A stretch of DNA of 62,787 nucleotides, counting the filler, from Asterionella formosa (Eukaryota): the NCBI GenBank assembly GCA_002256025.1. It is 18 parts of 18 records of this genome, joined end to end, with 100 filler letters (N's around TTAATTAATTAA, not from the genome) between each part and the next. Parts side by side here need not be neighbours in the genome. Positions count along the whole stretch, not along the records: positions 1 to 29,567 come from NKIB01000999.1; 17 more parts are not named here. One strand, 5' to 3'. Each line of letters starts with the position of its first letter. Within the stretch, counting starts at the first letter, position 1. The notes beneath the pieces are model-generated. The model was not told the DNA's origin and made no database searches. It saw only the letters and a program-made list of their open reading frames with translations. Shown here in pieces: positions 22,139 to 56,228 of this stretch. Made by a program: the position numbers and the translations under genes.

Positions 22139-24883
22139 TTATATCTGCACAATTGGAGAGGCCGGATTGCTTTTTCTTGATATGGCAGCAATTGCAGGCT
22201 GAACCTTCTCATGAACGTGGAAACCATTTTCACGACATAATTGCAAGGCTTCCTCAAGCTCCGTCTCATGTTCAGGGGTCAATAGTTTAAAGTAAAATGT
22301 GTAGGTATGAAACGAAGGACGAAATTTCTCTCGGTGGATTCGGCGAAAAACCTTGGTGCCAACTTCGAAGGCTTCGTCGGCCTCTTCAGGTCTTGACTTG
22401 CAACATGTCCAAAGTATGTTATTCATAATAATGATGGATCCATCAATTTTACGGTCATCCATCTCCTTCAACAAATTCCACACTACGAGAGCCTTGCGGG
22501 GGATCTCACTGTTTGATATCAATGAAATGATGGGTAGATATGTAAATGCATTAGGGCTGACACTGTGGTTTCCTGCGGCTTCAAGCTTCTTCATTTCATC
22601 AAGAATTGCATATCCTCTTTCCAATGCGTCATTTTCACGGCTTTTTGACCACGCACTCAGTAATGCCGAGTATGACACAACATTTGGCTTGCACGTATTG
22701 TCTCCTGCTTCATAGCGGCTCTTCATGTCATCCATATAATATTGTGCTCTGAAGGCCGCGTTTAGTTCACGGCTCTTGGCAAATGCTGATATCAAAGACG
22801 AGAACGTCCATGCATCAGGCTTGAAGTGCAACTCGTTGCCATACCCTTCCATTCGTTTAAAACATGCTTCGGCCTTTGTCCCGGCTTGGTGATCCCCGCT
22901 GTTGCTCCATGCCGATATAACTGTATTGATGGAAATATTATCAGGCTTCCAATCTTCTTTTCCATCTCGATACCCAGAAATCATTCGATCTAGCGTTTCT
23001 TGGGCTTTTTGTGCTCGTTTGTTTCTCCCATACACATCCAAAAGTGCGTTAAACGTCTTGACATTGGGCGCTAACTCTGGTTGCCCCAAAATTTCGGATC
23101 TTTCTTTCATCCTTCTGACGAGGGCTTCTGCACGTTCAATTGATTCAGGCTTCCCACTTCGTGCCCAAGCAATAATGGCAGTTGTGTATTGATGAGAAGC
23201 CAGGACGAGTCCACCCTTTTCCATTTCGTCCAAAAGAACTTCCACTCGTTCGGGGGCTTGGGGATTTCCACTTCGTGCCCAGGCATCCAATACACATGTG
23301 TACGTATAATGGTTTGGTTTATATTCCACCTCTCCAGTTTCCGTATACAACGCATTTAGTTCCTTTAACATACTGTCAGCTCGTTCGGCAGCACCCTTGG
23401 CCTTGGACTTTGCCCAACAATTCAAGACAGTAGCGTACGTCGGTGCATTGGGTTTGACATTTGGATTTCCAGCTCGATGTAATTCCTTCATTCGATTCAA
23501 AATAGCTTCAGCACGTGGAGCACCATTTGTGGGATCTCGGCTCCAGGCATTAATGACGCAGGCAAAGCCTATTGTGTCGGGTGCTATTGAACTATTCCCC
23601 GTGGACACGGCCAACCGTTGCATGGTCTCTAACAAAGCTTCTGCTCGTTGTGGTCCATTCCTATCGTTACTTTTGGCCCAAGCATCCAGAAGTGTATTAA
23701 ATACAATGTTGGATGGACACAACCCCGGATCCTGGTTTGTAGCTTCATATCGGTCTAATAAAAGCCGCAAAACTGATTCAGCTTCACGAGCCCTTCCTCT
23801 CCGACCAAAGGCTTGAATGACGCATCCATAAATATATTTATTGGGCTCTGCTGGCAATTGTCCCTGTTTGTGCAATAAATTCATATGTTGAAAAATGGAA
23901 AAACAACGTTCACAAGCATTGGGATCTGAACTCTTAGCCCAGGCATTCATAACAATGGAGAATGCAGTAGCATCTGGATTTACCATAAAATGTCGTAAAT
24001 ATCGTTCCACAATTTCGGGAGCAGTTACTTGTCGGCTATTGGCCCAGACGTTCATGAGACATAAATATGTTTTATCAGTGGGAGCTGTATCCATTCCGTA
24101 CTCACTATTTAAATTCTTCATCAATTCTAGGACCGATTCCGCTCGTTGCGGTCCCTCTGGCTCTCCCACATGCGCCAATATAATGGCATTGAACAACACC
24201 ATATCAGGACGTGCGGACAAATGGTGACTCGTCCACGTCCCGTTTTGGATTCTTTGAAGCATGGTACTTGCCAAGGCTGCCGCGTCGTTTCCCTGTTGAA
24301 TGGCAATATCTAATACCATGGTAAATGTTCTAACATCAATTTCAGCTTGTGGGAACACATCTTGATAGCGAAATAAGGTTTCCATAACAGTCCTCGCTGG
24401 ACGGAATGAGCCCGGTGAGTAATGTTCAACCCACGCCATTATGACAGAGGAAACTTCCATACTACCGGTAGCGGGTTGCTGCAGTTTCGTTTGTTGGTGC
24501 TGTTCCAGTACGAGTCTATCCAAAATCGACCATCGCATGTCGTCGGCTGCAAGACCAGGTTGGTGGATCCAATATCGAAGGGCTTGTACAGCCCCGTTGA
24601 AATCCCCAGTGGTCCATTGTCCGACTGGGACCTCCATAATACGATTTACGGAATGTCGCCATACTTGGTCTTGCTGTTGTCGCTCGGCGGTTCCATTGCT
24701 TGGTTCACTCCCATAAGGCATAATCCCGTTGATGGAGGGTGACGAAGGCGATGATGACGATGACGATAGGTACCGAAAACAAGTGCTTCGTCCCTCGAGC
24801 TGATTAATGATGCTACTTAGGCGGCTCTGAGCTGGAAGACATCGAATGCCAGCGGCCCTGATGGCTCTTGATAACGATATCAT
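22139..24883 (-). CDS. Pentatricopeptide repeat (P-class PPR) protein, likely mitochondrial
   Basis: More than 12 repeats of about 35 aa of type P[DN]xxx[YF]xxxxxAWAKS...AExLLxxM. Arg/Ser-rich N-terminal presequence MISLSRAIRAAGIRCL. Confidence 0.92.
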   Translation of the reverse strand: MISLSRAIRAAGIRCLPAQSRLSSIINQLEGRSTCFRYLSSSSSSPSSPSINGIMPYGSEPSNGTAERQQQDQVWRHSVNRIMEVPVGQWTTGDFNGAVQALRYWIHQPGLAADDMRWSILDRLVLEQHQQTKLQQPATGSMEVSSVIMAWVEHYSPGSFRPARTVMETLFRYQDVFPQAEIDVRTFTMVLDIAIQQGNDAAALASTMLQRIQNGTWTSHHLSARPDMVLFNAIILAHVGEPEGPQRAESVLELMKNLNSEYGMDTAPTDKTYLCLMNVWANSRQVTAPEIVERYLRHFMVNPDATAFSIVMNAWAKSSDPNACERCFSIFQHMNLLHKQGQLPAEPNKYIYGCVIQAFGRRGRAREAESVLRLLLDRYEATNQDPGLCPSNIVFNTLLDAWAKSNDRNGPQRAEALLETMQRLAVSTGNSSIAPDTIGFACVINAWSRDPTNGAPRAEAILNRMKELHRAGNPNVKPNAPTYATVLNCWAKSKAKGAAERADSMLKELNALYTETGEVEYKPNHYTYTCVLDAWARSGNPQAPERVEVLLDEMEKGGLVLASHQYTTAIIAWARSGKPESIERAEALVRRMKERSEILGQPELAPNVKTFNALLDVYGRNKRAQKAQETLDRMISGYRDGKEDWKPDNISINTVISAWSNSGDHQAGTKAEACFKRMEGYGNELHFKPDAWTFSSLISAFAKSRELNAAFRAQYYMDDMKSRYEAGDNTCKPNVVSYSALLSAWSKSRENDALERGYAILDEMKKLEAAGNHSVSPNAFTYLPIISLISNSEIPRKALVVWNLLKEMDDRKIDGSIIIMNNILWTCCKSRPEEADEAFEVGTKVFRRIHREKFRPSFHTYTFYFKLLTPEHETELEEALQLCRENGFHVHEKVQPAIAAISRKSNPASPIVQI

Positions 24884-25497
24884 GTTACTGTCTCGTCAAT
24901 ACAAAGAGGAGAGTCATGCATTTGTGTCAAGGTAGGAGAAGGGCGAATGCTGGAAGAGTGATGGTGGGGTGTGGTTGATGGTTGGCTGCACAGGTCTGAT
25001 TTCCACTCAAGAGACACTGTGAAAGCACATTCGCAGTACCTAGTGATGAGACTCATGATTTATTACCGGTACATACGATTTTGTACTGCTTAAGTAAAAT
25101 TCAAAAATTCGTTGACAAGAAGAAGAATGGCTGTCGTGAGAAGAGATCAGCCAAACTTGATGCCGACAAAGAATTAATAAAGGACCTATAATAGAGTGCT
25201 ATTTGAGCCTATCACCAGATTATATTGTTTTCTCACCCAAAAAAAACCTTCTTCGTAGTTGCACATTCAAAATGAGAAAATAAACTATCGATAAAACGTT
25301 CGAAAGATCATAACCTCGGCAAAATCATGGTTTTGAAATAGAATCATACAATGTGGGAGTTAACTGGTCGGACTCACTATCCCCGGTTTGTTTTCTTGCC
25401 TCGTTCTTAGGTTTCAGAATCAGGGTCAGCTCACAAACTTGGCATTCTATTCAAAAACAAACAATCAAAGTGCATTCAGATCAATACTACAGGTAGT

Positions 25498-27831
25498 ATG
25501 CTTCAACTATTAACTATTGCTTCCCTATTCTACCTATTGACAGTAGCAACTGCCAGTGGGATTCGAGGATTGGAGGAAGTTGATGGCATTTATTGTTGTC
25601 TCCGAGTTACTGAGAGTGTTTATCAGAATACGACAACTGGAATTCTTCGCGGCGAGGAAAGCATTTCGTGCGAAACTGATCCAGCTAGTGACCCTATTGG
25701 TGGTGATCCTGGACAACTGTATAAGATCGATTTGCCTGTTGACTTCTTGGCCCACAACAGGGCCCAACTTGCTCAGGGAAAAATGTGCATCAATGTTCCT
25801 GGAGGCACTGCCATTCAAGATGACTACCTTGGAAATCAAATTCTGATTCCAAAAGGTGCTACACTTTCAATTGTCAACCCCTCTGACTATCACAGGAGTC
25901 GTCGTATGGTTCTCAAGACCACCGGAGTCTCAACGGTATTGGTGTTGCTCATTGACACTCCTTACAACACTCAGCCTTCCGCTGCTTCTAATGTGTCCAA
26001 ATATATTTTTGGGAAGGACTCTCCGACAACTGCAACTGTATTTCGCGATTGTTCGAGGGGAGCAAAGATTATTGTGCCTGCCACTGGACAAGGAATTACA
26101 AATGGAGTAGCAAGGATGACATTTGCTTTCAATTTCGACACCTTCAACCGTGATACATCGCTAGGGAAGATCATCGTCAAAGCAGAAGGTGAGAAATTCT
26201 GTTTGCATATTCCACGAGAAAAAGAGTGTAATGTCCAGCTATCTCACCAACCCTTTTGTCAATAAGCGGTCTATGGTAAATTTGGAACAGGAAGTGCAGG
26301 GACTATTGACAACCTCATAATCTGCTTTCCCAAGGCGACACCCTTCAATAACTTTGTTAGTGCGGCATATGTTGGTGGCGCCATCTCTTGGTACGCAGAA
26401 CAGATTTGTGAGCGAGTCTCTTTGACTGCGCATGAACTTGGACATAACTTCGGGCTCCTTCATAGCAGTATAGGCGATGCAAAATGTAAGTTTCGAAAGA
26501 TATCCTTTGCAAACCTTTAACATGATGGGTGAACAGAAAGTCTCATCACAGTATTCTTCTTCAAACGCACGCGGAATCATCCAGACGGAGATAATTCTGG
26601 ATTCATGGGCGCCGGAACGTTTATCAAACATTTCCCGGCGAAATGCTTTAATGCTGAAAACCGTAAGTACCGGATATAAAATAATGTGAGCAACCTCAAA
26701 CCACTCCAAGTTGACCAAATATGTATGAACCTCTCCACAGATTGGATTCTTGGGTGGTACAAGAACAGGAGAATTGATGTAAACCCCTCGTCGACCGGGG
26801 CTTGGAAAGGTACCATTACTGCATTCACTGACACCGGCGGCAGCTATGTTCTTGTCAAGTTGCACAATCTTTACATGCAGTACAACAAAGCCAAATCATT
26901 CAACTTTCAAACCGAAACGGGTGCTAACAAGCTTGTTATCGTCATGAAACGAGACTCGGGCACATTCCTCCAAGCGGAACTTGATTCGTCTAACCCAAAG
27001 TTCACCTATACATTCAGCGGCAAAACATACGTTATCGAGGTGTGTAAACAATATGTGTCTGGTCTTGTTGACATGATAGACATGAGTATTGTTGATTCTA
27101 CCGCCGGCCAATCAAGAGTCTGTCAAGGTACAATCCCTATTGTAACAGGGGCTTGTTTCTCAGGAAAAAATACGATCCAAGTTAGAGATAAGGGCACCAT
27201 CATGATGCAAGACCTAAAGATCGGCGATGAGATCCTGGTTGCGAAAAATACGTACGACAAAGTCTACAGCTTTGGGCATCGTCACGAATCTACAACCGCT
27301 GAGTTTCTACAGTTCCTTCCATCAGGGCTGGAGATCACTAATGACCACATGGTCGTAATTGAAGGCGGATGCAGAGTTCCAGCGTCGTCGATTCAAGTCG
27401 GGGATCGGCTTCAGCTAGGAACAGGCGAACTTGACACTGTAACACAGATCAATATGGTCAGTCGAAACGGAGTCTATGCACCATTCACGTTCTCCGGAAA
27501 CATTGTCGCGAGTGACGTCATGGCCTCAAATTATATCGCCTTCCAAGATTCAGATCGTCTCATTGTCGGAAACTGGAAGACGCCGATGACGTTTCAATGG
27601 CTTGCACATTTATCCCAATCACCTCACCGAATATTCACTCGTCTATTCTCAGCAACGATTGATGAAACATACACAGCCGAAGGGATATCGACATGGATTG
27701 AAATTCCACAAAAGATGGGCAAATGGTGGCTGAGCCAAAATAACTTCGTCATGATGTTGCTGTTGATTCCTGTGCTAGCGCTGTTCCTCATATTTTCCAT
27801 GGTAGAAATGCTCCTCTCACTCTTCACGTAA
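25498..27831 (+). CDS. Secreted M11 (gametolysin-like) zinc metalloprotease fused to a Hedgehog-type Hint/Hog domain and a C-terminal TM; exons 25498-26188, 26267-26485, 26585-26662, 26741-27831
   Basis: Signal peptide and basic RSRR pro-site. Three phase-1 GT-AG introns give HELGHNFGLLH (HExxHxxGxxH), YGDNSGFMG (Met-turn) and CFNAENHWILGWY. Then GA|CFSG (Cys at 27154), LKIGD, ITNDH, GVYAPFTFSGNIVASDVMASNY, AHLSQSPHR and the hydrophobic tail FVMMLLLIPVLALFLIFSMV. Confidence 0.88.
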
Positions 27832-30127: not shown

Positions 30128-31524
30128 TCAAGAATCAGAACTCTCCTGTAGAGACCGACACCGTGAGGCGCGCTCATCAATCGTCACAACTTTTTGCAGC
30201 TGCTGCTGACTTTCTCGGTTGAGGATGCTGGCGCGAATGGCAGCCACCGACGATCTGGCATGTGAGCCTTCCTGACTATTACGTCTAGATTTATGATTAT
30301 TCCAGTACTGGTTCAATTGGTCTTTGTCGATCCGCGTGGATCTTTTCCAGTATTTTGGGACAAACAGTGGAACCAGCACAGCAAAACAAACGATGGTGAT
30401 GACGACTGAGGTAACCACAAATGATGCAGACGGAGAATCAAGTGTCAAGAAAGTTATGGGAAGCCCCAGCAACATGGCTTCCAATATACTCGCCATTGAC
30501 AAAGCAACGTAAACGCTTTCATTAAAGTCACTCGGCACGTGTCTTGCCAAATAACTTTGATAGTTAGCGAAGATGACCATTAACATGTTGATCAAGAAGA
30601 GAGTTAGCGCGAAGGCAAATTGAGGTGAACTTCCTGTGGCCCAGCAGGTTCCATAGGATTCCACCCTTCGACCGAAAGAGTCGAAGTTGTCAACAAGTAC
30701 TCGAGTCCATTGCAAGGGGGCGACAATGGTCCATGTCAGGAGTACCGCATAGTTGATGAAAAAGGGAAGTCCTACAATCCAGAACACGTCTTTTGCTTTG
30801 ATGTCGGTGCGACGCATTTTACCTGATATTTGAAATATCCTATTGATTCGCCACTGCTTCGCCAAAAGAGAAGAAAATGCAGTTACGAAGCCTGTTGAAA
30901 AAACCCAAGGGATTGCCATGCAGGACGCATCAAGGCCATTTACTGGTTCCTGGAGGCTGAGTGGAATAACTGTGCATGCCATGATGAATGTACCAACACA
31001 GAGCTGACAAAGGAATATGGGTTGAGCCGCACGAATGATGGGATTCTTGCGTTTTTTAATTGTCCAATACATGCACCAAGATGAGAAAAAAATCACTAGC
31101 GCAGCCAATACCCAGCCAAATACTTGAAGGCCTCTGGGAATCAAATTCATATTCATGTTGTATGCTGGTAGTGAAGGGGGAGCAATCAATCCATAGTCAG
31201 CATAGACAAATGGCTCAAGGATGGTTAATTTCCCATTTACCACCTCGATTGCAGGAATCACGTCAAACTCAATTGTTTCAGCGGTCGAGCGCTTCTCATT
31301 CTTGACCAAGTTGTTAACAACATAAATCACGTTTTCTGACCTTCGTGTGCCTGTTTGAGGATCAAAGCTCACAGATCCCGACGCACCCTCAAACGATGTC
31401 TTCTTGACTTGATCATACAGTTCTTGCCCTGTAAAGAATTCATTTTGAGCCTCGCATGCCGCTATACCAAGCGCAATAACAGCATCGTAATTCGTGTGTT
31501 CATAAGGTCCTTTTGTAACTTCTG
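30128..31524 (-). CDS. Class C (GABA-B-like) G-protein-coupled receptor, 5'-partial
   Basis: The ORF runs from the contig edge. Venus-flytrap C-terminal motifs YDAVIAL and FEGASGSVSFD, then 7 TM helices with IIRAAQPIFL, C.AIPW...GF...FSSLLAKQWRINRIF and ARHVPSDFNES. Confidence 0.85.
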
Positions 31525-32223
31525 NNNNNNNNNNNNNNNNNNNNNNNNNNNNNNNNNNNNNNNNNNNNTTAATTAATTAANNNNNNNNNNNNNNNNNNNN
31601 NNNNNNNNNNNNNNNNNNNNNNNNAGTCAACGAGTTGCTTATTGTCATCTGGAAAAAGGAATCGTCTGCGAAATCGGAGTTTGCATCTAACATGCTGAGA
31701 AGACCTTTGTCCCTGGTCTTTTGATATCAAGTGTCCTATTTGTTCAGACAAGTCAATCCAAAATTGATGTCAGGGACTAATGGATGATGAGGATTTAGCT
31801 TGCAAGACCCGCCATTGTTGCATGTATATAGAAAAAAGACGCGAACACTCGAAATCCCAATCTGGAATCCAAACTGGGTACTTTTCGGCTTCTGTGAATC
31901 CGGTCGGTCGGGTTGGTTTATTAAACGGAAATCAGGGCCCTTCTCATCATTTTTTTCGAGTATCACGGAATTTTTGTGAAAATGTATCAGCAACGGTAAC
32001 TCGATTTGAACTGAATTTCATTTATTCCAAAAGTTTCACTGTATCACTAATTTGTGATCACATTGTATCATAGAGTAACATTGGTCTTCAACGGCAACTG
32101 GCTGGCGACGATCATGTGTATACCCCTCCAGAATATAATGATGGTCTTGATATCAAGCAGCAACATAAAATATAATTACCGGGAAACTATATATTGTATT
32201 AGTAACACACCATTGCATGAATC

Positions 32224-37492: not shown

Positions 37493-39347
37493 AAATTGGT
37501 AACCGTATCAATACAAGTTAGAGCACGAAATTCAATTAATTGATTTGCCACTGTTATCTTCCATGGACCAATAAAATCGACTGCAACTTCTGACCATGGC
37601 AATAATAATGCATTCCTGGGTGGAAGTTCACCTAAGCCACATTGACATGCTTCACATACTCTTACAATATGTTCCACTCTTGCTTTTAATGTAGGGTGAT
37701 AAAAATGTGTAGCAATTGTAGCATTTAATCTTGTCATACCCACATGAGCTAGCATCTGATGATACCAATTAATAATAGGATCCAATAATGATGTAGGAAT
37801 AGCAATACGCCAAGTATCTCCTGGATTCTTCACAAAACATATTAAAAATATGTCATGAAAATTGATAGAAGGAAATTTTAAAGGATGTGTTTGTTGATTG
37901 AGAATCAATTGTATATCCAGCAATTGTCTATCATGTATTAAATTATAGTCCAGAGGAAATTGAATATTGTCTGTCAAGATTGGATGATTAAGGAAACTGG
38001 CAGGTAGGCAAAAGTTCATCATCTAATTCAATTGAAAAGGTAGAAATGGATGTTGATGCTGGAGATTTCGGTCCAATATCATCCCCCACCAAAGACTCAA
38101 GCCTCGGGAGGCGAGAGATGGAATCTGCAATAGCATTGTCAGTCCCTTTCACATGATGAAAAGTAGGATGATATTCTTCAATATAAAGTCTCCATCTTAG
38201 AACACGTTGAGTATGTAAAGTATTGTAAATAAGATTTCGATGATCAATATGAACATGTAGAACTGCACCCAATAACATAGAGCGAAATTCTTTGAAAGTT
38301 TCTACCACAGAAAGTAATTCTTTCTCAATAGTAGTATAATTCTTTTGAGCAGCAGATAATTTGCGAGAATAATAAGCAACTGGTAGATCATTTTGCATAA
38401 TGACCGATCCTAATTGATAATCAGAGGCATCAGTAACTATATTAAAAGGAAGATTATGATCAGGATAACGCATGAGTGTATCTGCAATCAACAATGCTTT
38501 CATTTCTTCAAAAGCTTGTTCATGTATAGGCAACCAGACAAATGGACTAGTTCCGATTAAATCTGTAAGCGGTCCAAGCCCATGAGATTGTCTAGGAAAC
38601 ATGTCTCGATAGTACGTAACAGCACCAAGAAATGATCTGACTTGTTTAAGATTGGTAGGTGAAGACATATTAATCAATGCTTGGACCTTTTTAGACCAAG
38701 GTTTCAGTCCATTAGGAGTTAACCAATAGCCTAACCAATCTTTCTCTTGGACTGCCCATTCACACTTAGATGGATTAATTGTAAGACCATTTGCCTGTAA
38801 ACGATGTAAAATAGTATCCAATAAATGAATGTGATCCGAAAAATTCATTGAAAAACAACCCACATCATCAATATAAATTTCCACATCATCTAAATCACTA
38901 AGGATCTTTTCCATAGTTTCTTGTGCTATATCAGATGATTGTTTCACCCCCATGGGAGACGTAAATATTTATATAAACCAAATGGAGTTGAAATAACACA
39001 CAAGTTTTGACTCTCCACCTCCAATGCAAAAGTATAGTATTGCATGGTAACATCCAATTTGGTGAAAAATACATATCCAGCACGTTTAGTGAGAATAGTT
39101 TGTATTCGAGGCAAAGGATATATATTGCGATTGATGACTTTATTAAGTTCACGAAAATCTGATACCCATCGGACACTTCCATCCTTTTTTGGAATAATAA
39201 AAGTGGGAGATGCCCATTTAAAAGCACCACATTTTTGTAGGACTCCAATATCACACAACCGTTGTTATTCGGTTTTGAAAACTTCTAAATTAATATGAGC
39301 GACAGGATATGCTCGTTGATGACAAGGGATAGCATTTGATAATAATT
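37493..39347 (-). mobile_element. Ty3/Gypsy LTR retrotransposon pol fragment (RT-RNaseH-integrase), frameshifted
   Basis: WASPTFIIPKKDGSVRWVSDFRELN, YLRLP, YIDD, RNase H TDASDYQLG..YYSRKL..EKELLS, integrase Zn finger YHQMLAHVG..CEACQ and VAVDFIGP, in RT-RH-INT order. Confidence 0.95.
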
Positions 39348-54567: not shown

Positions 54568-55082
54568 GCGGTTCCATCGATGCATACATCACCAAAGTCT
54601 GATACGTAATAATAAATAAAGTAAATCACATAGCTATGATACATTGATCATAAAATTATGATGATTTTATGAAATGTTTATGATATAATTTTGATCAAAA
54701 TATGATCATGTTAAATAATACAATGATAATAAAATACGATAAAATATGTACGCAAGTGTTACCAAGACATAATAGAAAATAAATCAAGCAATCATAAAGT
54801 ATGTTAATTAATATATATGTTTGTCGTTTAATGTATACACTTAAAAACAACACTTAATATGATAGTATTATACAGTGGATAGGATCTAAGTATACGGATG
54901 CGTTGATATGTACATCACTATAATATGATTTGTGACATGATGGATTGATGCATATCACATACCGGTATCCTCAACAACTANNNNNNNNNNNNNNNNNNNN
55001 NNNNNNNNNNNNNNNNNNNNNNNNTTAATTAATTAANNNNNNNNNNNNNNNNNNNNNNNNNNNNNNNNNNNNNNNNNNNNAA

Positions 55083-56228
55083 AGGTGGGTTGATACCCAT
55101 ATTCAAACGTGGGCCAACATTGCTGGACCACTTCTTGGAGTACCCAAAGCAGTGCCATCTATTCTCTCAGGCGAAATGAAAGACACCAATATTGTGCATG
55201 GGATGTTCGGGCCAACCGTGATCGAGCAATTCTTTGGAAGAAAACTTCGTCAAGAACTTTGGAGCACGTGGGGCTCGCTATGGTCCATGCTACCAAAGGG
55301 CGGCGATGCTATATGGGGTCCCGGAGCAGACATGTGCAATGAAACCTCAGTGGTTGATGGAGTAGAATGCAAAGCAAGAACTGATGACGCCACAGAGAAT
55401 AATTTTGCATTGTTGCTGCAATTCACAGATCATGGCTCCAAGAGGAAAGAATGTTCAAAATTGTCAGACAATGTCGTCGAGAAATTTGGCCGTGAGCAAC
55501 GACATGGCGTTGATGAAACGATTCACCTCCTTACTGAGTGGGGTGCAGGTTATGGAAAATCCTTGGCCAACACTAGGTTTGTTTCTTACAACACACAGGA
55601 ACGTTCATCCCCTAAAACGTGGCATGACTCTTCCAGAACTCCACTTCCAAATGCTCCGAATTTAAAGATATACTGCATGTATGGAACTGGTCTTGATACA
55701 GAAAGAGCCTTCTTTTACCAACACAATGACAATCTGAGCAGCAACGAGGAGAATAGTCAGTGTCCAGCATCGCCCTCAGATCTTCCATTCATCATGGATT
55801 ACTCTGTTGAAAAGAATGAAGGTCAAGGCATTAAATACGGAGTCAAAATGGTAGATGGGGATGCTTCTGTCCCGTTGATCTCACTTGGGTACATGTGTGT
55901 CAATGGTTGGAAGCAGCGATACCTGAACCCATCTGGAACAAAAGTGATCACTAGGGAGTATCGTAACCAGCAGGCTTTTTCCATGGGCGATCCGATCCGT
56001 GGGGGATCCAGAAGTGGAGAACATGTGGATATCCTGGGAAACCTTGACATGACGGAGGACTTTATTCGTATCGTTACCGATCATGATTCGGGCAGTGTTC
56101 AAAACCAAATCAACAGTGATATTGCAGCCATCTCGAAGCGTATTGATGCACACCCACTTGGTGGTCTCAACAAGAGGCGGAAGCGATTAAATCCTCTTCA
56201 TCGCTTCCTTCCAAAGAGAACACGATGA
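55083..56228 (+). CDS. PDAT: Phospholipid:diacylglycerol acyltransferase (PDAT, LCAT family), 5'-partial
   Basis: WVDTHIQTWANIAGPLLGVPKAV..LSGEMKDT, SMLPKGGDAIWG, LPNAPNLKIYCMYG..TERAFFY, DGDASVPLISLGYMC and SGEHVDILGN. Confidence 0.88.
   Translation, partial: RWVDTHIQTWANIAGPLLGVPKAVPSILSGEMKDTNIVHGMFGPTVIEQFFGRKLRQELWSTWGSLWSMLPKGGDAIWGPGADMCNETSVVDGVECKARTDDATENNFALLLQFTDHGSKRKECSKLSDNVVEKFGREQRHGVDETIHLLTEWGAGYGKSLANTRFVSYNTQERSSPKTWHDSSRTPLPNAPNLKIYCMYGTGLDTERAFFYQHNDNLSSNEENSQCPASPSDLPFIMDYSVEKNEGQGIKYGVKMVDGDASVPLISLGYMCVNGWKQRYLNPSGTKVITREYRNQQAFSMGDPIRGGSRSGEHVDILGNLDMTEDFIRIVTDHDSGSVQNQINSDIAAISKRIDAHPLGGLNKRRKRLNPLHRFLPKRTR

Follow-up and report, generated by a model that had tools for sequence, protein, structure and literature searches.

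A window of 62,787 nt of DNA from the freshwater diatom Asterionella formosa (GenBank assembly GCA_002256025.1; 18 parts of 18 records joined with filler, so that parts side by side need not be neighbours in the genome) contains, at 25498-27831 on the plus strand, a locus that is, as judged from sequence comparison, a real diatom nuclear gene for a predicted secreted zinc protease carrying a Hedgehog-like self-cleaving domain and a membrane anchor. Four exons join into one open frame of 692 codons, and the product is probably a type I membrane precursor of 692 residues in which a signal peptide, a pro-region, an M11-like (gametolysin-type) protease, a beta-sandwich, a Hog (Hedgehog-type Hint) domain and a transmembrane (TM) helix would follow one another. 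An earlier note on this DNA had proposed such a fusion, and the motifs that it listed (signal peptide, RSRR, zinc site, Met-turn, Ala/Cys border, TNDH, GVYAPFT, WLAH..SPHR and TM helix) were all found where it had placed them (Table 1).

In the open reading frame (ORF) track the locus is broken into fragments (25411-26265, 26266-26520, 26533-26679 and 26680-27831), which are reunited by the removal of three introns, all of them GT..AG, in phase 1 and slightly lower in G+C than the exons (0.38-0.40 against 0.45). Since every intron length is a multiple of 3, the gene keeps to one frame throughout, with four in-frame stops along it. The three-intron solution of the earlier note holds for this frame, and the exon model is strongly supported by related sequences. 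The close relative P0225 (486 aa) is 75% identical to residues 230-691 of the joined protein, aligns without a gap at junction 2 (residues 303/304) and junction 3 (residues 329/330), and has neither intron 2 nor intron 3, whilst the 711-aa P0001 is colinear over 656 aligned columns (39% identity, E = 3e-143) and lacks intron 3, again with no gap. Exon 2 shows 74-84% identity to P0225 and P0224. For exon 1, which on its own gave no Pfam match and whose pro-region is lineage-restricted (only 3 relatives of the exon-1 part were found), similarity to P0217 (100% identity), P0218 (63%) and P0219 (68%) ends exactly at junction 1 and is followed by a stop.

Comparison of the window with RNA contigs revealed 15 exonic strain differences, 11 synonymous and 4 non-synonymous in the joined frame, together with 3 in introns, a 1-nt insertion in intron 1 and 1 difference upstream; in intron 1 of other strains the insertion follows 26218 and a single-nucleotide polymorphism lies at 26235. 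The pattern is indicative of purifying selection on the joined frame and not of a decaying pseudogene. It is extremely improbable that the locus instead comprises one gene for a protease fragment and another for a Hint protein, or that it is a pseudogene in decay. Public gene calls do split it into pieces of 244 aa and 368-381 aa, and the four stops do break the frame, but every stop lies inside a GT..AG segment that is absent from relatives, the 5' piece alone has no zinc site and the 3' piece no signal peptide, and synonymous differences are in excess. Furthermore, RNA contigs bridge the pieces, crossing 26741, the border between protease and Hint parts, in all four runs compared, and in relatives one ORF encodes the fusion, in line with the one gene of the earlier note. 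A tblastn search for a second Hint gene in the window matched only the present gene, with no tandem copy.

The C-terminal part is predicted by profile, model and residue mapping to be a Hedgehog-type Hint (Hog) domain. For the Pfam Hint family PF01079, whose cut-off is 29.7 bits, the exon-4 translation scored 79.5 bits over profile positions 10-210 of 213 (E = 3.4e-22), as the earlier note had anticipated of a Hint hidden Markov model, and the read-through translation 76.7 bits; the scores of Hint_2, Vint and PT-HINT in the Pfam scans were below their cut-offs. An AlphaFold2 (AF2) model of the exon-4 part, built on 77 aligned sequences, reached a mean predicted local distance difference test (pLDDT) score of 90.9 and places a beta-sandwich at exon-4 residues 21-119, a Hint core at 139-284, helices at 285-292, 294-303 and 318-331 in a segment that resembles the adduct recognition region (ARR) or sterol recognition region (SRR), and a terminal helix at 335-362. 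The two best Foldseek matches were the Drosophila Hedgehog C-terminal (Hh-C) structures 6TYY (E = 1.2e-9) and 1AT0 (E = 6.2e-8), with TM-score (target) values of 0.78-0.79 and 28-29% identity, followed at ranks 3-50 by inteins, bacterial intein-like (BIL) domains and Vint domains. Cys468 and the TNDH motif align to Cys1 and TPAH of the Drosophila protein, and His509 aligns to the mutated His (D46H) of 6TYY; the general base of Hedgehog (Hh), Asp46, is not kept. The PF01079 match extends as far as profile position 210 of 213, and the model has three helices after the core; phmmer alignments to solved Hh proteins end within the Hint core, and none pairs the segment with the SRR of a solved Hh. 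Through its TM helix the Hog domain is predicted to sit on the membrane.

We sought relatives of the Hog part and obtained, counted as representatives of 50%-identity clusters, 4584 at E <= 1e-3 and 506 at E <= 1e-30. All 62 matches of at least 637 aa carry PF01079, and 32 of them carry another Pfam family as cargo, the cargoes being M11, M43 and M14 peptidases, trypsin, subtilase, sulfatase, multicopper oxidase, beta-lactamase-like, TrAA12-like, VWA, LRR, Kazal, beta-helix and others. Among 57 further representatives, taken mostly by length from 150 listed, a cargo family was present in 26, adding GH19 chitinase, fasciclin, glucose/sorbosone dehydrogenase and aspartyl protease. Two source names of family members lead to the diatoms Synedra and Thalassiosira. 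Of 216 family proteins, 210 gave a match; 2 of these were dropped for incomplete coverage, and the remaining 208 domain-covering members were aligned with the window sequence to give 209. Cys1 is conserved in 208 of the 209, whereas a His at the Asp46 position, a Ser or Thr at the Thr69 position and His72 are found in every one. The W, the H and the PHR of the helical segment are conserved in 181-206 of the 209 sequences, and 206 of 207 members, the window protein with its own C-terminal helix alongside them, have a TM-like hydrophobic segment at a median of 39 residues after the conserved PHR motif.

Hog domain, conserved helices and membrane helix thus read as the unit of the family, a predicted generic C-terminal cassette on many secreted enzymes. 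The survey for the same architecture suggested in the earlier note did bring up six relatives that pass the M11 cut-off, but the fusion is not singular, M11 being one of many cargoes on the cassette. The Hog-plus-TM architecture is already visible in public databases with precomputed Pfam labels, and the family is in that sense existing but uncharacterised; more than 290 genes with IPR001767 (Hint) are given for Pleurosigma pacificum and 112 for Seminavis robusta (PMC12803021). Neither protease-Hog fusions nor the His base nor the terminal membrane helix was described in the diatom literature searched.

The N-terminal part belongs to the metzincins, and the HH_signal (Hedge) family was absent among the Pfam matches. 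The zinc site HExxHxxGxxH (here HELGHNFGLLH) and the Met-turn with Met311 are intact, and both are conserved in relatives; read by eye, the xMG motif of the Met-turn is kept in P0001, P0049, P0077, P0182 and P0225. Exon 2 alone gave sub-threshold matches to several metzincin Pfam models, centred on the zinc motif. Relatives of the same architecture exceed the cut-off of the Pfam M11 model (PF05548, 21 bits), with 34.2 bits for P0225, 48.9 for P0001, 58.9 for P0049, 42.3 for P0077, 43.8 for P0182 and 53.8 for P0197, and the match of P0225 covers the stretch equivalent to exons 2-4. A basic cluster, RSRR in this protein, precedes the first strand of the catalytic domain and recurs in P0218, P0219, P0049, P0077 and P0182, although by eye none is present before the catalytic domain of P0001; it fits a putative pro-peptide cleavage site. 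The beta-sandwich consists of eight strands in the AF2 model, with block pLDDT mostly 70-95, and the region is also present in the M11-Hog relatives P0001, P0075, P0077, P0133 and P0182, the Pfam M11 profile extending into it in P0001. A full-length model of P0001 had a moderate pLDDT of 72.8, values below 50 falling in the pro-region and in the Met-turn loop, and outside the Hint domain its fold matches were weak (the M6 immune inhibitor A2 zymogen, TM-score 0.21-0.24 and root mean square deviation 18, and a glycopeptidase); we draw no conclusion on the family from this model.

As regards the mechanism, we propose that in the secretory pathway Cys468 would attack the carbonyl of Ala467 in an N-to-S acyl shift aided by Thr529 and His532, and that His509, which is invariant in the family, would then activate a nucleophile to resolve the thioester, by which the protease, on the lumenal or extracellular side, would be freed from a membrane-bound Hog-TM stub. 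The resolving nucleophile could be either water, giving plain release, or a membrane lipid or sterol, giving a lipidated protease. Self-cleaving release from the membrane tether appears likely, while a lipid adduct on the released protease is doubtful. In sequence comparison the residues of the first step are present and conserved and the base-type His is invariant. In animal Hh, whose active site comprises C1, D46, T69, H72 and C143, C1 makes the thioester with TxxH assisting, the sterol hydroxyl is activated by D46, and a branched intermediate is formed by C143 (PMC12054796).

Several observations weigh against the reading of a spliced, self-cleaving M11-like protease, and they concern the family of the protease, the active site of the Hog domain and the RNA of the locus. 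Pfam M11 was not matched by the window protein, which was run as exon pieces and as a read-through translation with X at the stops rather than as the joined 692-aa protein. Of the M11-like protease of the earlier note, the zinc site, the Met-turn and the relatives above the cut-off therefore stand, but the family match of the protein's own pieces does not, and its putative gametolysin-type (M11-like) membership rests on those relatives. In the Hog domain the active site is not identical to that of animal Hh, although fold, Cys1 and TxxH bear out the Hedgehog-like character that had been claimed. Asn593 aligns to Cys143 of animal Hh, and the corresponding column of the family holds S in 91, N in 72, T in 37, C in 5 and A in 4 of the 209 sequences. 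The residue before Cys1 is Ala467, as opposed to Gly in Hh, and is variable across the family (F 56, I 37, L 25, A 17, G 14 and others, n = 207). In Sonic Hh, Ala and Asp mutants of C143 give no processing (PMC12054796). Since Cys143 is absent, the route cannot be identical to that of animal Hh. No biochemistry of any diatom Hog protein was found in the literature searched.

The nature of the resolving nucleophile separates plain release from a Hedgehog-like lipid transfer, in which a sterol or membrane alcohol held by the ARR-like helices would attack the thioester and the protease would keep a C-terminal lipid on Ala467 and stay on the cell surface. The general-base-type His that is invariant at the Asp46 position is in keeping with such a transfer: D46H Hh still processes (PMC12054796), and Drosophila D303H keeps its structure and activity and accepts more sterols, the swap to His thus keeping sterylation and widening sterol tolerance (PMC9163320). 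The conserved helices after the Hint core, where the Pfam profile aligns with its SRR-containing end, and the TM helix, which puts the active site at the membrane, point the same way. However, a His might just as well activate water, the pairwise alignments stop short of the SRR, Cys143 is missing, and the residue before the cleavage site is often bulky. Moreover, no adduct is known for any non-animal Hog, and the survey by Burglin (2008), in its available text, leaves the adduct of non-animal Hogs open (PMC2362128). Taken together, we regard lipid transfer as a tentative and rather improbable alternative to release by water.

It could also be that the Hog domain is catalytically dead and serves as a stalk only, and that the protease is a permanently membrane-bound ectoenzyme. 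The loss of Cys143, the Ala in place of Gly at -1 and the divergence of the ARR from animal SRRs would agree with this, but Cys1, His46, Ser/Thr69 and His72 are invariant or nearly so in 209 sequences at ~40% pairwise identity, a degree of conservation that one would not expect of a spacer; protist Hogs, moreover, generally lack the motif-J Cys (PMC2362128). A dead Hog domain is thus quite unlikely, and self-cleaving release remains the reading that we prefer.

The RNA data derive from 12 public runs that contain the stretch or part of it (11 recorded as RNA; nine studies). Four of these (X1, X2, X4 and X7), each from a different study, were compared as assembled contigs, which carry no strand and drop minority isoforms, so that spliced sense mRNA may exist unseen. 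The contigs of X1, X2 and X4 together cover ~25494/25600 to 27878/27953, and those of X1, a poly(A) library at a depth of 60.8, end at 25494 and 27901 and are transcript-like; the contigs of X7 run from before 25300 to 26935 only, with a gap at ~26348-26555. In all four runs the contigs are colinear with the genome and retain all three introns, and the number of spliced sense junctions in them is 0, so the four-exon mRNA that the earlier note wished to see in RNA did not appear. Neither the contigs nor the public protein collection yielded a spliced RNA or protein record of Asterionella formosa. The five protein records of the species (P0063, P0201, P0202, P0217 and P0220) all derive from unspliced sequence, the first three beginning inside intron 3 and P0217 and P0220 reading into intron 1, and the collection holds no Asterionella formosa record of at least 637 aa, the best long match being P0001 at 45% identity. 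An unspliced sense RNA would terminate after 256 aa, before the zinc site.

The sole joint in the RNA contigs, in X4, connects 26160 to 26248 at a depth of 2.7 compared with 6.1 for the unspliced path. It removes a canonical minus-strand intron (Table 1), and therefore some RNA over the locus is antisense; this antisense RNA, a minor X4 contig, overlaps exon 1 and intron 1. The retained introns may accordingly reflect either unspliced sense pre-mRNA or antisense RNA, both being possible from strandless contigs. The contigs of X1, X2 and X4 also break at the same 34-nt node, 26906-26939, whose depth differs from that of its neighbours; within the part that encodes the beta-sandwich, this node may represent a repeated word or else a branching variant.

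These data raise the possibility of silencing or gating at the RNA level, in which mainly intron-retaining sense RNA (with a 256-aa product or decay), antisense RNA or both would be made and protein would appear only after regulated splicing, or never. Such a scheme would explain why the dominant contigs keep three introns in each of the four runs, which come from four studies and include a poly(A) library, and why the minus-strand intron is the only joint; the close relatives P0222 (on a 2471-nt contig) and P0224 are also recorded unspliced, and intron retention is prominent in a model diatom (PMC5859163). On the other hand, spliced sense mRNA may be hidden in strandless contigs that drop minority isoforms, the spliced frame appears to be under purifying selection, and the P0001 lineage has fully spliced 711-aa forms, on contigs of ~2.5 kb, beside forms that retain a single intron. 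We therefore consider RNA-level gating an appreciable possibility, if not a probable one, and keep to the spliced, self-cleaving precursor.

In the P0001 lineage the 711-aa forms lie on 2506-2532 nt contigs, forms of 456 aa and 373 aa, each reading into one retained intron, on 2585-2587 nt contigs, and pieces of 270 aa and 365 aa on contigs of 14-21 kb. The gene of this lineage is thus spliced to the full fusion, with frequent intron retention. It has two introns, at sites other than those in the Asterionella formosa gene, and the differing positions, which were inferred from protein records, point to intron gain, loss or sliding within the gene family. In this lineage, which includes the P0001 relatives P0205, P0210 and P0213, one of the two lies six codons upstream of the intron 3 site. 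The P0225 record appears to retain intron 1, and in P0224 intron 2 is present and read through in frame with no stop. Scans of metagenome contigs with the exon-4 protein and P0001, made for the DNA of relatives, found nothing.

Among known systems, the C-terminal domains of animal Hh (1AT0, 6TYY) are the closest: they give the top match in both Pfam (PF01079) and structure, and share Cys1 at the start of the domain, TxxH, helices after the Hint core and a place C-terminal to a secreted cargo with a signal peptide. The diatom protein differs in its cargo, an M11-like protease instead of the Hedge domain, in the His at the Asp46 position, a natural counterpart of the engineered D46H mutant that is also the top structural match, in the Asn and Ala at the Cys143 and Gly-1 positions, and in the TM helix after the ARR. 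To our knowledge, animal Hh has no TM helix after the ARR, and we know of covalent sterol modification by a Hog domain for animal Hh only.

Hogs with non-Hedge N-termini are described from nematodes (warthog, groundhog, quahog), a choanoflagellate (Hoglet) and many protists, and share with the diatom protein a secreted N-terminus followed by the Hog domain (PMC2362128). Red-algal and moss Hogs have likewise lost the motif-J Cys and carry Ser, Thr or Asp at the Cys143 position (Burglin 2008, PMC2362128). In the available text of that survey only GmGIN1 and Hoglet had other recognisable N-terminal domains, the words 'diatom' and 'stramenopile' do not occur, and the function of non-animal Hog domains is raised as a question (PMC2362128). 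The diatom proteins differ from the Hogs of the survey in carrying recognisable enzymes as cargo and in having a membrane helix at the end of the cassette. Inteins and BIL domains, bacterial or ciliate, share the Hint fold and likewise begin with an N-S acyl shift at Cys1, but the diatom protein has no C-extein to ligate and the column of the C-terminal catalytic Asn/Cys is variable across the family.

The protease part resembles the gametolysin/VMP peptidases (MEROPS M11, PF05548) in HExxHxxGxxH and Met-turn, in the layout of a secreted pro-enzyme and in a beta-rich part after the catalytic domain, and relatives of the diatom protein at 29-75% identity lie above the Pfam cut-off, a level that the window's own pieces do not reach. 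We know of no Hint domain or membrane anchor in the green-algal gametolysin enzymes. For a role in mating, which the earlier note had offered as an example, no evidence was found for or against. In Pseudo-nitzschia a gametolysin-like 'autolysin' is induced one hour after mating (PMC8769554), Hint-domain genes are expressed in sexual Seminavis (PMC3879662), and 'Hedgehog'-annotated transcripts decrease during spore formation in Chaetoceros (PMC9999646).

The remaining genes of the window are ordinary nuclear genes, among them Yip1, RabGAP-TBC, RRM, TraB-like, PI3/4-kinase and HPAT genes and those listed in Table 1. An ORF for an LCAT-like sterol or lipid acyltransferase lies 27 kb from the Hog gene in the window, which is probably a coincidence. 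The window has 40.5% G+C and 1969 N, and was therefore read as a scaffolded assembly.

Table 1. Features of the protease-Hog locus and other features of the window.
Feature	Positions	Strand	Residues (aa)	Details
Start codon	25498	+		ATG
Exon 1	25498..26188	+		Signal peptide, pro-region, RSRR, first half of protease domain; from ORF and junction
Signal peptide	25498-25557	+	1-20	N-terminal Kyte-Doolittle (KD) hydropathy 2.08
RSRR	25894-25905	+	133-136	
Intron 1	26189..26266	+		78 nt, GTGAGA..AG, phase 1, in-frame TAA at 26263
Exon 2	26267..26485	+		Zinc-binding helix
HELGHNFGLLH	26431-26463	+	286-296	
Intron 2	26486..26584	+		99 nt, GTAAGT..AG, phase 1, two in-frame stops
Exon 3	26585..26662	+		Met-turn region
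Met311	26605-26607	+	311	
Intron 3	26663..26740	+		78 nt, GTAAGT..CAG, phase 1, in-frame TAA at 26677
Exon 4, first part	26741..27132	+	330-460	Predicted beta-sandwich domain after catalytic domain
Hint core	27151..27591	+		PF01079 match, Foldseek, residue mapping to Drosophila Hh-C, family conservation
Ala467/Cys468	27151-27156	+	467/468	Cys codon 27154-27156
His509	27277-27279	+	509	
TNDH	27337-27348	+	529-532	
GVYAPFT		+	573-579	
Asn593	27529-27531	+	593	
ARR/SRR-like helical segment	27592..27729	+		W..H...PHR helix pair, YT..G.S.W motif, amphipathic helix
WLAH..SPHR		+	615-626	
C-terminal TM helix	27739..27825	+	663-691	Hydrophobic, almost no cytosolic tail; KD19 = 2.9; AF2 helix
Stop codon	27829-27831	+		TAA
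Antisense intron	26161..26247	-		87 nt, TTG/GTGAGAT...TCTTCCCTAG/CG; canonical sites, pyrimidine-rich tract and AG
Pentatricopeptide-repeat protein	22139-24895	-		918 aa, uninterrupted ORF; divergent, ends ~600 nt upstream of Hog gene start
Class-C G-protein-coupled receptor	30128-31576	-		7tm_3 E = 1.5e-37, trace of ligand-binding ANF domain; next gene downstream in window
Retrotransposon polymerase fragment	37988-38968	-		RVT_1 and RNase H-like domains
LCAT-like acyltransferase ORF	55029-56228	+		E = 2.1e-29

The locus and its family offer a testable case for the much older non-animal Hogs, in which assays can follow whether the cargo, an enzyme, is released or kept at the membrane. The active site would be nature's own D46H 'general base swap', and it would act without the Cys143 that animal Hh needs. 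If proteases, sulfatases, oxidases and adhesion domains are first held by the cassette and then set free or anchored by a lipid, this would bear on the remodelling of the organic casing of diatoms, of their mucilage and of their surroundings. A bolder view, which we hold to be speculative and improbable, is that the diatom Hog cassettes constitute a Hedgehog-style lipidation of their own, His-based and Cys143-independent, in which a sterol or lipid would be esterified onto dozens to hundreds of exoenzymes, with the present locus additionally gated by detained introns, antisense RNA or both. If true, such lipidation would pin exoenzymes, the M11 protease included, to the cell surface, and it would be protein sterylation outside animals.

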